64,000 nt of DNA from the sequence record PV733668.1. One strand, 5' to 3'. Both the position numbers and the translations under genes were made by a program. Below the pieces are notes generated by a model, which ran no database searches, was not told the DNA's origin, and saw nothing but the letters and a program-made list of their open reading frames with translations. Shown piece by piece: positions 13,755 to 16,576 of this stretch; the stretch's first letter is position 1; every line of letters begins with the position of its first letter. Source of the stretch: Pseudomonas phage NCVTCBPA170.

Positions 13755-14579
13755 TTGCAAATGACGTTCCAATTCACTCCCGCACAAGCAAGCGTGATGT
13801 CTGACGATAAGCACAGTATCATCCTGTACGCCTCCCACGCAGGCGGAGGTAAGTCCCACCTCGTAGCCAAGTGGCTCACCGAACCCATGCACGTGGAAGG
13901 ATATCGAGGCTTGGCAGCCCGGAGAACCATTCCATACCTCACGGGCCCTGGAGGCCTGGCGCAACAGATAGTAGATGTTGACCCAACTCTGCGGTTCTTT
14001 CGAAGAGATTTGATGGTAAGGACTCCAGATCGCAGGTCCTCCATAGTTCTTCGAGGCATCTCAAACGAGGAAGCCCCTAGAAGCCTGGGAGGATTCGTAT
14101 TTCAAAGGGCAGCGGTTGACGAAGCCAACCAGGTAGACAGCAGCGCTCTGACTTACCTGTTGAGCAGACTCAGGAACCCGCAGTGTCCTGAGGTAACTCC
14201 CCAGGTTTTGATGACATTCTCTCACGGAGACTATTCCAGCACATTCCTAGACGCCCTTGTGCGACCCTTCATTGAAAAAGAGGATAGCGCACGAGGACAC
14301 GGCGGGGTAGGGAGGATTGATCCCAAGAAGAGTGGTCAGACAAGATGGCTCACCTTTTTACGAGGGGTGCCGGTTGTCGCAAAGAACCCGGAGTCTCTGA
14401 TAGACCTCTTGGAATGCCACACAGGGCAAGAGCCAGAAGAAGCCAACCTCATCCCGTACACCCTGTACTTCCAGCCGGACGTTCACCCGGTTGTGAAAGA
14501 ACTCTACCCCGAGTACGAATCTCATCTGAAAACCCTCGCATCACCTTTAAGTGTTCAGATGACTGGCTACTGGGGGTGA
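13755..14579 (+). CDS. large-terminase paralog, ATPase domain only (no nuclease domain)
   Basis: collinear with the N-terminal ~270 aa of the TerL at 15158: Walker A ASHAGGGKSH vs GGAAGAGKSY; RRTIPYLTGPGG vs RRTTPQIKGPGG; Walker B AAVDEANQV vs FLVDEGQQY; RNPQCPEV vs RGPKCPEV; YFQPDVHPVVKELYPEY vs YDNPVVMEINPQY. Ends where the nuclease domain would begin. Confidence 0.7.
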   Translation: MQMTFQFTPAQASVMSDDKHSIILYASHAGGGKSHLVAKWLTEPMHVEGYRGLAARRTIPYLTGPGGLAQQIVDVDPTLRFFRRDLMVRTPDRRSSIVLRGISNEEAPRSLGGFVFQRAAVDEANQVDSSALTYLLSRLRNPQCPEVTPQVLMTFSHGDYSSTFLDALVRPFIEKEDSARGHGGVGRIDPKKSGQTRWLTFLRGVPVVAKNPESLIDLLECHTGQEPEEANLIPYTLYFQPDVHPVVKELYPEYESHLKTLASPLSVQMTGYWG

Positions 14580-14584
14580 CGAAT

Positions 14585-14608
14585 AGCCCCGCATAGCGGG
14601 GCTTTTTG
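14585..14608 (+). terminator. rho-independent terminator
   Basis: agccccgc-atag-gcggggct followed by T5. Confidence 0.6.
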
Positions 14609-14650
14609 TGCCCAGGGATTGGCCCCGGGCAATGCAACAAGGAGCCTACC

Positions 14651-15076
14651 ATGGCTTATGAAATGACCCCAGAGGATAAGGTCCTCTACGATGCAATCGC
14701 TCGAATCGGCGTCCTGGGAGCTATCCAGGCAGGCCTGATGAAGGCAGGGGATGGTGGGGAGCCTGCACCGGCACCAACCGTAGATACCCTGGAAGGCGCT
14801 GGAGCCACTGGTAAGGCAGTGATGAAAGCTGCGGATGCTGCTACTGCACGAACTGCTATTGGAGCAGGAACCTCGAACCTGGCCATCGGTACCAGTGCAA
14901 GCACTGCTAAAGCAGGCAACTGGAAACCTGCCTGGGCGGATGTCACCGGAGGCGATGCAGCCGTTTCTGCGGGTGTTAAGGCTAAGGTGAATTCCGTCGC
15001 AGCAGTGGCCGAAGACGCCGAGTTGGCAGCCGTCACTGCCAAGCTTAACGAACTGTTAGCTGCCCTAAAGGCATAA
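14651..15076 (+). CDS. Ala/Gly-rich hypothetical protein, 141 aa
   Basis: AAGGAG RBS; low-complexity Ala-rich sequence; coiled-coil-like C-terminus. Confidence 0.45.
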   Translation: MAYEMTPEDKVLYDAIARIGVLGAIQAGLMKAGDGGEPAPAPTVDTLEGAGATGKAVMKAADAATARTAIGAGTSNLAIGTSASTAKAGNWKPAWADVTGGDAAVSAGVKAKVNSVAAVAEDAELAAVTAKLNELLAALKA

Positions 15077-15086
15077 ACAGGGACTG

Positions 15087-15120
15087 GGGGCTTGACAAAG
15101 TTAAGCCCCTAGCATATACT
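15087..15120 (+). promoter_or_regulatory. strong sigma70-like promoter upstream of the terminase; its -35 lies in a hairpin loop
   Basis: TTGACA(15092), 17 nt, TATACT; hairpin ggggctt..aagcccc; the motif GGGCTTGACAA recurs at 15143. Confidence 0.45.
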
Positions 15121-15157
15121 GACCATATAAGCAAGAGAAACTTTGAGGGCTTGACAA

Positions 15158-16576
15158 ATGACTAAGACAGTCATCGGTCCTAAGTCTCCGAAGCAGGAAG
15201 CGTTTATCAACTCCACTGCGAACATCACCGTGTTCGGTGGAGCTGCCGGGGCTGGTAAATCCTACCTCGGAGTGATGGACTTTCTAAAGCATGTGAAGCA
15301 CCCGATGTTCCGGGGCCTGATCACTCGACGGACCACTCCTCAGATTAAGGGCCCTGGCGGTATCTTGGATAACTGCCTTCAGTTGTACAAGCAGTTTGAC
15401 AAGAATGTCAAATGGAAGGATAAGGACGGGAAATTCGTCTTCTCCTCGGGAGCTGAGATTCACCTTCGACACTTTGCCCACATCGACGATAAGGACAACT
15501 ACCAGGGTCTGGAAATCAACGAATTTCTCGTTGACGAAGGACAGCAATACACCCTGGAAATGTTGCTTTACTTGATGTCTCGTATGCGGGGTCCGAAGTG
15601 TCCAGAGGTTGAACCTCACATGAAGATCACCTGCAACCCCGATTATAACAGTCCGCTGCGTAAGTGGCTGACTTGGTACCTGGACCCTGAGACAGGTATC
15701 CCGCTCCCAGAAAGGGACGGAATCACTCGGTTCTTCACTATCCAAAACGGAGACATGGAGTTCGCTGACACAGCGGAAGAGCTGATTGAAAAGTACAATC
15801 TGAAGTCTCCTCCCCTGACTTTCAAGTTCATTTCGGCAAACGTCTACGACAACCCTGTCGTGATGGAGATCAACCCCCAGTACGTTGCCTGGCTTGAAGG
15901 TTTGAACAGGGTCGAGAAACTTCGACTGCTCCATGGTAGCTGGTTTGCCCGAGAAGAGGCAAGCGGCTACTTCAAGCGAGAATGGACTCCAATCATTCCG
16001 CTTAGGCCTACGGATACCGTGCGACAGGTAAGAGCCTGGGATATCAGCGGTACGCTTCCGTCAGACTCCAACAAAGAGCCAGACTGGACAGCGGGTGTAT
16101 TGATGAGCAAGGGCCGGAGCACGCTATACACAATCGAGGATGTGGTGAGAGACCGCCGCCGTATTGGTGGGGTTTTTGAACTTATCCTTGAGACAGCAAG
16201 ACATGACGGAGCTGACACTACGATCCTGATTCCACGTGATCCAGGAGCGGCAGGACAGCATCTTGCATGGGACTTTGTTCGCCGCCTGGCAGAGCACGGG
16301 TTCCATGCCAGGACCCGTCCAACCAACAAATCAAAGGTCACCCGGTTCGGTCCTTTTGCCAGTATGGCAGAGGCTGGAGGTGTTCAGGTAGTAGAAGGCC
16401 CCTGGAACGAGGCTTACCTGACGGAGCTGGAGGTGTTTGATGGAAGCCGGAATGTTAAGGACGACCAGGTGGATGCCACCTCGGACGCCTACACTTATTT
16501 GGCATCCGACATCCACATTCCCAACTTCATCCCTCCGGACCTGACCCGACCAAACCCGCTGGCCATTGAACGATAG
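15158..16576 (+). CDS. terL: terminase large subunit
   Basis: Walker A GGAAGAGKSY; Walker B LVDEGQQ; C-terminal RNaseH-like nuclease region with Asp residues; 472 aa; followed by the portal. Confidence 0.8.
   Translation: MTKTVIGPKSPKQEAFINSTANITVFGGAAGAGKSYLGVMDFLKHVKHPMFRGLITRRTTPQIKGPGGILDNCLQLYKQFDKNVKWKDKDGKFVFSSGAEIHLRHFAHIDDKDNYQGLEINEFLVDEGQQYTLEMLLYLMSRMRGPKCPEVEPHMKITCNPDYNSPLRKWLTWYLDPETGIPLPERDGITRFFTIQNGDMEFADTAEELIEKYNLKSPPLTFKFISANVYDNPVVMEINPQYVAWLEGLNRVEKLRLLHGSWFAREEASGYFKREWTPIIPLRPTDTVRQVRAWDISGTLPSDSNKEPDWTAGVLMSKGRSTLYTIEDVVRDRRRIGGVFELILETARHDGADTTILIPRDPGAAGQHLAWDFVRRLAEHGFHARTRPTNKSKVTRFGPFASMAEAGGVQVVEGPWNEAYLTELEVFDGSRNVKDDQVDATSDAYTYLASDIHIPNFIPPDLTRPNPLAIER

Follow-up and report, generated by a model that had tools for sequence, protein, structure and literature searches.

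A TerL-type ATPase-domain paralog without a nuclease domain near the large terminase gene of KPP10-like Pseudomonas phages

Why would a phage with a complete large terminase subunit (TerL) carry a second TerL-type ATPase gene a few hundred nucleotides upstream of it? The question is raised by Pseudomonas phage NCVTCBPA170 (PV733668.1), of which a stretch of 64,000 nucleotides (the window) was analyzed. A first-pass annotation of this stretch, made from the letters alone, had read the open reading frame (ORF) at 13755..14579 as an ATPase-only paralog of the TerL encoded at 15158..16576. Based on family profiles, structural models, genome comparisons, and public expression data, the gene is very probably what that reading says, namely a TerL-type ATPase-domain paralog that lacks the nuclease and is a real, conserved gene. 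The fuller reading favored here, in which the paralog is a functional accessory TerL-type ATPase and an auxiliary packaging partner of TerL, is given a probability of about 0.4; the packaging-partner mechanism taken by itself is tentative, somewhat short of even odds. Positions 13000–17000 of the window are 99.5% identical to Pseudomonas phage KPP10, and 39 further records, all from Pseudomonas phages, are 91–99% identical to the same region. By this comparison the window represents a KPP10-like phage of the genus Nankokuvirus, the genus being read from the records of KPP10, PAK_P3, LSL4, and Ab03.

All PHROG families matched by the paralog are annotated as 'terminase large subunit'. The profile of phrog_15848 was covered from end to end (profile positions 1–272 of 272, ORF residues 3–274 in the 274-residue numbering, E = 1.7e-194), and the real TerL's own family, phrog_979, was matched with E = 1.6e-23. 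Curated TerL models gave no match at threshold: Pfam returned only Terminase_3 below its cut-off (13.9 vs. 23.2 bits), and NCBIfam returned nothing for the paralog. While the ORF as such was called correctly in the first-pass annotation, its start most likely was not. The start is placed at ATG 13761, which lies 6 nt past a GGAGG and yields 272 amino acids, rather than at TTG 13755 (274 amino acids), and public records use the start equivalent to ATG 13761.

In a single BLASTP comparison, the paralog and the TerL of the window were 28% identical over 267 residues (E = 6e-22), corresponding to residues 10–249 of the 472 TerL residues. Pfam places Terminase_6N at TerL residues 26–276 and the nuclease domain, Terminase_6C, at 293–446, and from these limits together with the BLASTP span it follows that the paralog covers the ATPase half and ends at the hinge. 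In an alignment of 70 sequences (67 TerLs and three paralog alleles), its end falls at about TerL residue 270, and its C-terminal TGYWG corresponds to SGYFK of TerL, just N-terminal to the nuclease domain. Neither Terminase_6C nor an equivalent C-terminal RNase H-like nuclease domain was found in the paralog, which does stop where the nuclease would begin, as the first-pass annotation had claimed.

Both ORFs are present as described, and every motif listed for them occurs in both proteins. Walker A reads AGGGKS in the paralog and AGAGKS in TerL; the RRTxP...GPGG block, the Walker B sequence VDE, R(N/G)P(Q/K)CPEV, and (VH/DN)PVV.E..P.Y are common to the two. With Walker A, Walker B, and the catalytic glutamate, the paralog shows the signature of an additional strand catalytic glutamate (ASCE) P-loop ATPase. 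A Q motif is also present in the BLASTP alignment (TPAQ in the paralog, SPKQ in TerL), about 21 residues before the P-loop lysine; MAFFT displaces it by one column. Residues invariant in all 70 aligned sequences include K31 (Walker A), R54 and P58 (RRTxP), G111, D120 and E121 (Walker B and catalytic glutamate), R136 and R138 (SRxR), G184, P250, and Y252. Within its span, 63 columns reach a conservation of 90% or more among the TerLs; the paralog keeps 29 of them, and the features lost include the C-motif, a DNP turn, and the helix that links to the nuclease. Among the paralog alleles, the motif residues are invariant except for R55K, T56N, and T152A, each found in a single allele. As the residues of the nucleotide site and of catalysis are retained, the paralog looks competent for ATP binding and hydrolysis, and we infer that it would carry out both.

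Whether the paralog, TerL, or a joint profile served as the query, phmmer and hmmsearch revealed no terminase among PDB sequences, and a comparison of folds was required. A single-sequence AlphaFold2 (AF2) model of the paralog was unusable, with a predicted local distance difference test (pLDDT) score of 32.6, and was superseded by a run with the three paralog alleles and 67 TerLs, which reached a pLDDT of 88.7 and a predicted template modeling (pTM) score of 0.89. Full-length TerLs cover the entire paralog in model comparisons, with query-based TM scores (TMq) of 0.71–0.80. In a Foldseek search against solved structures, the TerLs of Sf6, P74-26, D6E, and HK97 ranked highest and T4 gp17 ranked lower (E about 1e-3). 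Additionally, BFVD contains a model of the CHA_P1 orthologue that was predicted independently, and it agrees with the paralog model at a TM score of 0.93. Profile alignment and structure prediction are thus in line with the proposed ATPase fold lacking a nuclease. The predicted RecA-like ATPase spans the whole protein, and neither the helix-turn-helix (HTH)-type domain and oligomerization core of a small terminase (TerS) nor any TerS family match in Pfam or PHROG was found.

A misassignment would take one of two forms, an unrelated P-loop NTPase of the PhoH or DnaA kind, or the 5' half of a TerL gene split by a frameshift or an intron. The sub-threshold Pfam result could be taken in this sense, and split TerL genes exist in other phages. 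An unrelated NTPase was rejected, as the PHROG matches are to terminases only, PhoH and DnaA families are absent from the matches, neither the models nor the best structural match point to PhoH, and the predicted fold is that of TerL. A frameshifted or split TerL was rejected as well: the paralog is followed by a terminator and a head-fiber gene, the 578 nt 3' of it contain no nuclease-like sequence, further downstream there is a complete TerL that has an ATPase domain itself, and the same layout recurs in 40 independently sequenced genomes. The probability left for an artefact is negligible. The first-pass annotation had named both outcomes as fatal to its paralog reading, and neither came out.

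By tblastn, each of the 40 Nankokuvirus records contains a full-length, single-piece paralog, with one copy divided only by the record ends, and the arrangement with TerL is the same in all of them. Outside this genus, the best matches in phage records were full-length TerLs at about 25–29% identity, and matches among representatives did not exceed 37% identity and covered partial stretches. A word-indexed search of 5.8 billion clusters gave three clusters only (99, 79, and 77% identity), an exhaustive scan with HMMER over 1.84 billion representatives gave one cluster and distant TerLs, and IMG/VR gave one locus on a contig of 86,246 bp; in JGI metagenomes the paralog was not found. By the measure of these searches, the paralog is restricted to Nankokuvirus.

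The paralog is about 28% identical both to its own TerL (82 bits) and to that of the Pakpunavirus PaP1 (90 bits), two TerLs which are 60% identical to each other; a recent duplication had been denied by the first-pass annotation, and these values bear out that denial. A neighbor-joining tree of ATPase domains left the paralog unplaced at the end of a very long branch; the window TerL or the PaP1 TerL fell into its sister group in only 13 of 50 bootstraps. The distances of the paralog correlate with the distance to the Nankokuvirus TerL (Spearman 0.56, p = 3e-5), and its guanine-plus-cytosine content is 0.54, compared to 0.549 for the genome. Taken together, the comparisons point to an old origin from a Pakpunavirus/Nankokuvirus-type terminase by duplication or acquisition, followed by fast divergence. 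Of the earlier proposal, an old duplication or a mosaic acquisition, the old origin holds; neither alternative is singled out by the tree or the distances.

When the window is compared with LSL4 or Ab03, the paralog shows 0.14 nonsynonymous substitutions per nonsynonymous site (dN) and 0.95–0.97 synonymous substitutions per synonymous site (dS), that is, a dN/dS of 0.14–0.15, with zero indels in 819 nt at about 77% nucleotide identity. A short Logan contig supplied a third allele, for which dN/dS was 0.20, the dS across comparisons being 0.76–0.97, and the segment-wise dN/dS never rose above 0.45. The first-pass annotation had also considered a decaying remnant, here understood as a functionless leftover of a duplicated or captured terminase. 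Although the low identity to any TerL, the very long branch, and the change of the C-motif and of roughly half of the TerL-conserved positions would suit such decay, the 272-codon ORF is intact in all 40 genomes and free of indels, its dN/dS is low, the catalytic residues are retained, and the gene has its own ribosome-binding site and terminator and is strongly transcribed late. A remnant was rejected on these grounds and is considered very improbable. Retention as a separate gene agrees with the data, and by evolutionary criteria the paralog is functional, a genus-specific accessory gene.

The TerL of the window is 99.6% identical to that of LSL4 at the nucleotide level and 100% at the protein level (dS 0.02), and its dN is at most 0.002 compared to the 0.14 of the paralog. 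In a sliding comparison of the same two genomes, the flanks are about 100% identical, identity falls to 69–85% over about 13.8–14.6 kb, and it climbs back to 91–94% by 14.6–14.8 kb, so the diverged stretch is essentially the paralog gene. Because this stretch is set within flanks of about 100% identity, the paralog is an exchangeable, divergent allele cassette. Its protein is 97% identical to that of PAK_P3 and 79% to that of LSL4. The head-fiber gene is likewise a mosaic cassette, with the other partner: its protein identity shows the reverse pattern, with 82% to PAK_P3 and 98.6% to LSL4.

In PaP1, the tRNAs are directly followed by TerL and the slot is empty. In two uncultured relatives, whose TerLs are 65–70% identical, the same slot holds genes of 275 and 272 amino acids (L006 and L007, Table 1). 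These were considered as divergent orthologues of the paralog and rejected (E ≥ 0.17; different PHROGs, phrog_5335/13935, which are families of unknown function). One of the two also carries an HNH endonuclease and a head-fiber gene of 76 amino acids in the slot. The interval between the tRNAs and TerL is, judging from these genomes, a variable cargo site.

Public data on expression and virion composition are available for PAK_P3, in which the paralog is gp164 in GenBank and gp165 in Henry et al. (2015). In RNA sequencing, the reads of gp164 (86699..87517) rose from 136–1135 at 3.5 min to 6803–115786 at 13 min, a log2 fold change of 6.4 that places the gene in the late class (PMC4933390, supplementary table). 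Its read density in replicate 1 was about 90 reads/nt vs. about 611 for TerL, i.e., about one-seventh (PMC4933390). Transcripts of gp163, the gene upstream of gp164, are already high early (PMC4933390), which suggests that the terminator at 13703 shields the paralog from transcription arriving from upstream. The equivalent of the antisense RNA as_20 reaches across the paralog's 5' end, and at its position the alignment of the window with PAK_P3 has zero indels; the timing of as_20 is given as 'early specific' in the table of PMC4933390 and as 'late' in the GenBank note. The paralog was not among the 25 PAK_P3 virion proteins determined by mass spectrometry, in which the neighboring head-fiber protein was detected; its absence from the virion is as expected for a terminase-like factor.

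The arrangement is already known, and its presentation as undescribed in the first-pass annotation had to be withdrawn. In KPP10, PAK_P3, CHA_P1, PAK_P5, G1, PS24, and LSL4, the two genes both bear the RefSeq name 'terminase large subunit'. Henry et al. (2015; PMC4309531, S1 Text, S5 Table) listed the paralog as family 201, 'Terminase?', reported HHpred probabilities of >99.5% to the Sf6 and T4 terminases, and suggested a small-terminase function. This family and PHROG 15848 are the paralog's own family, without structural difference. When the literature was searched by phrase for a duplicated or second large terminase, only split genes or allelic variants came up, and no paper studying the paralog gene itself was found. 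The label 'terminase large subunit' overstates the gene; 'TerL ATPase-domain paralog, no nuclease' would be the better name. In Ab03 (NC_026587 25629-26447; L005 1259-2077), only the last 59 codons are annotated (ORF55 in RefSeq and GenBank). A truncated gene of 59 amino acids was rejected here, since the 272-codon ORF is intact; the short entry is an annotation artefact and due for extension to the full ORF. Similarly, the 59-residue PHROG 33771 matches exactly residues 216–274 of the paralog and looks like the product of truncated annotations.

Among known systems, the TerLs of Pakpunavirus and Nankokuvirus (Terminase_6N plus Terminase_6C; phrog_979) are the best sequence relatives, sharing the ATPase fold, the Q motif, Walker A and B, RRTxP, SRxR, and CPEV with the paralog. 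The latter differs from them in the absent nuclease, the identity of only about 28%, TFSH in place of TCNP, and a far faster evolution. T4 vs.8 (219 amino acids; L010 8254-8913) is likewise a second, nuclease-less TerL-ATPase-like protein beside a full TerL, with Walker A and B kept and a weak match to the TerL family phrog_2 (E = 1.7e-5). As the paralog shows no similarity to vs.8 (BLASTP E = 20; phrog_1488 not among the paralog matches), the two are of independent origin. Furthermore, vs.8 is located not beside the terminase gene but between denV and regB, in a block of small accessory genes expressed early or middle. In phi29, whose genome is protein-primed, gp16 is the only motor ATPase and cooperates with the packaging RNA (pRNA), whereas a complete TerL is also present here and the paralog resembles phi29-type gp16 less than it resembles TerLs. 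Split TerL genes (phrog_9526 and phrog_9453; phiPDS1) also comprise an ATPase-half ORF of about 270–280 amino acids, but there the two halves make up one TerL, whereas here a full TerL exists and the extra ATPase copy has no nuclease partner. The TerS of Staphylococcus aureus pathogenicity islands (SaPI) and Rpp of phage-inducible chromosomal islands (PICI) are satellite proteins that redirect packaging. With these, only a functional analogy is possible, as an accessory factor altering TerL, the folds being unrelated and the phage being virulent and not a satellite. A satellite-like redirection of packaging, which the first-pass annotation had considered, is not indicated by any of the present data.

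According to the packaging reading, an ancestral Pakpunavirus/Nankokuvirus-type terminase would have been duplicated or acquired, its nuclease half being lost or never present, and the paralog would assist the true TerL as a partner when DNA is packaged or matured. In mixed assemblies with TerL it would contribute further ATPase sites and arginines, though no nuclease, and might in this way tune cleavage or motor activity; alternatively, the paralog might serve as the TerS-like activator or recognition factor proposed by Henry et al. The retained nucleotide site, the co-expression with packaging genes, the absence from the virion, and the position in the packaging/head module beside TerL and portal argue for an accessory packaging ATPase. 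Several observations weigh against this role. The AF2 alignment was dominated by TerLs, and the resulting model is no independent test of the fold. The C-motif is changed from TCNP to TFSH (AFSH in LSL4). Within the genus, TerL is 99.6–100% identical at the amino acid level while the paralog alleles differ by 21–23%, which is unusual for a tight physical partner. The unrelated genes in the slot of relatives indicate that the paralog is not a core packaging component, and Pakpunaviruses package similar terminally redundant genomes without it. Finally, a DUF5681 protein encoded at 11765–12121 is by position and size a more conventional TerS candidate. In the version of Henry et al. (PMC4309531), the paralog would replace the small terminase altogether, recognizing phage DNA and activating TerL. 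This proposal is attractive in that a canonical TerS is unidentified in these phages and the gene is co-expressed late and near TerL in the packaging module, with the head-fiber gene between them, but an ASCE ATPase fold is not the HTH/oligomerization fold of a TerS, packaging proceeds in Pakpunaviruses without the paralog, and the DUF5681 protein occupies an equivalent position in Nankokuvirus and PaP1; we regard a small-terminase substitute as improbable. The DUF5681 protein (118 amino acids; 31 bits, above the Pfam threshold) is weakly similar to PaP1 gp045 (26% identity, E = 3e-5), and both genes precede the tRNA cluster and TerL. In both genera it is a conceivable candidate for the small terminase; literature support for such a role was not found.

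The main rival of the packaging reading, though an unlikely one, is a function in conflict. Here a TerL mimic would serve competition and not the phage's own packaging, either by poisoning assemblies formed by the terminases of co-infecting phages or of satellites, or by engaging host sensors of terminase ATPase domains (Avs1-3, Upx) as a sponge or modulator. The restriction of the paralog to one genus, its place in a variable cargo slot upstream of TerL, and the cassette-like allele replacement (dS 0.97 vs. 0.02 for TerL), a typical arms-race pattern, are consistent with it. Furthermore, isolated terminase ATPase domains activate Avs2, as does T4 vs.8, which is reportedly toxic together with EcAvs2 (bioRxiv 10.64898/2026.04.30.721860). 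Selection on the paralog is purifying overall, however, with no segment above the dN/dS limit given above, and Avs-type sensors should be triggered rather than blocked by an ATPase domain on its own; a PADLOC search gave zero matches for the paralog, and late expression comes too late for many anti-defense roles. A broader variant, in which such mimics are exchangeable conflict cassettes and T4 vs.8 belongs with the paralog to one recurrent, independently evolved 'terminase-mimic' class, seems distinctly unlikely.

Nankokuviruses, with KPP10, PAK_P3, and their relatives, are among the best-studied therapeutic phages of P. aeruginosa. Being conserved, under selection, and expressed late, their additional TerL-type ATPase is a concrete candidate when an unconventional cofactor of packaging is sought. 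The terminase-mimic reading is topical in view of the activation of Avs2 by isolated ATPase domains and vs.8. In PAK_P3, where transcriptome and virion-proteome data exist, the paralog is a well-defined target for a knockout.

The coordinates of the locus are compiled in Table 1. The gene order is small ORFs, tRNA-Asn/Tyr/Gln, the 272-residue ORF, head-fiber gene, TerL, and portal. The first-pass annotation was right in placing the paralog directly after the tRNA cluster, and an identical set of three tRNAs is found in KPP10, PAK_P3, LSL4, and Ab03. Its distance of 0.6 kb to TerL is correct too (578 nt), but the head-fiber gene in this interval, which also holds a terminator and a sigma-70-like promoter, had gone unmentioned. 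The terminator ascribed to the paralog is present right after its stop codon and kept in LSL4, Ab03, and PAK_P3, with differences confined to the loop; a further one upstream is added here. The two hairpins are alike (AGCCCCG...CGGGGCT plus a T run), flank the paralog, and are kept across allele types. They may insulate the transcription of the paralog, and they could be homology anchors for cassette exchange.

Table 1. Features of the paralog locus in the window and corresponding slot loci in relatives
Feature	Position	Strand	Basis or remark
tRNA cluster, directly 5' of the paralog	13144..13643	+	ARAGORN: Asn 13144-13220, Tyr 13278-13365, Gln 13567-13643
Intrinsic-terminator hairpin 3' of tRNA-Gln, 34 nt ahead of the paralog start	13703..13727	+	Pattern scan; fold -21.2 kcal/mol, z = -6.05
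Equivalent of antisense RNA as_20, overlapping the paralog 5' end	13712..13917	-	Homology only, PAK_P3 GenBank ncRNA 86650-86855
Shine-Dalgarno GGAGG for ATG 13761	13750..13754	+	Sequence; invariant in four genomes
Stand-alone TerL-type ATPase-domain paralog, 272 aa, nuclease domain absent	13761..14579	+	KPP10_gp158
Walker A/P-loop codons, A24-S32, ASHAGGGKS	13830..13856	+	Alignment of 67 TerLs and 3 paralog alleles; K31, S32 invariant
Walker B strand and catalytic glutamate, F112-E121, FVFQRAAVDE	14094..14123	+	Alignment; D120, E121 invariant
Intrinsic terminator right after the paralog stop codon	14585..14603	+	Pattern scan; fold -20.8 kcal/mol, z = -4.96
Head-fiber gene between paralog and TerL	14651..15076	+	phrog_1954, phrog_5711; RefSeq 'head fiber protein'
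Sigma-70-like promoter TTGACA-17-TATACT ahead of TerL	15092..15120	+	Consensus scan only; 11/12 matches
Full-length TerL (ATPase and RNase H-like nuclease), 472 aa	15158..16576	+	Pfam, phrog_979 E = 6.5e-206, TIGR01630
Slot locus in relative, L006	4160-4987
Slot locus in relative, L007	3149-4893
Slot locus in relative, L003	3420-3877

Two minor observations came from the database searches. In the representative search, 12 stretches of P0006, a protein of 4306 amino acids, matched residues 71–124 of the paralog (E = 3.9e-9), which is probably a repeat or composition effect. P0069, P0087, and P0121 (775–823 amino acids) are close homologues of the real TerL, and two of them carry a LAGLIDADG (PF14528) insertion, which points to intein-containing terminases in relatives of this phage group.

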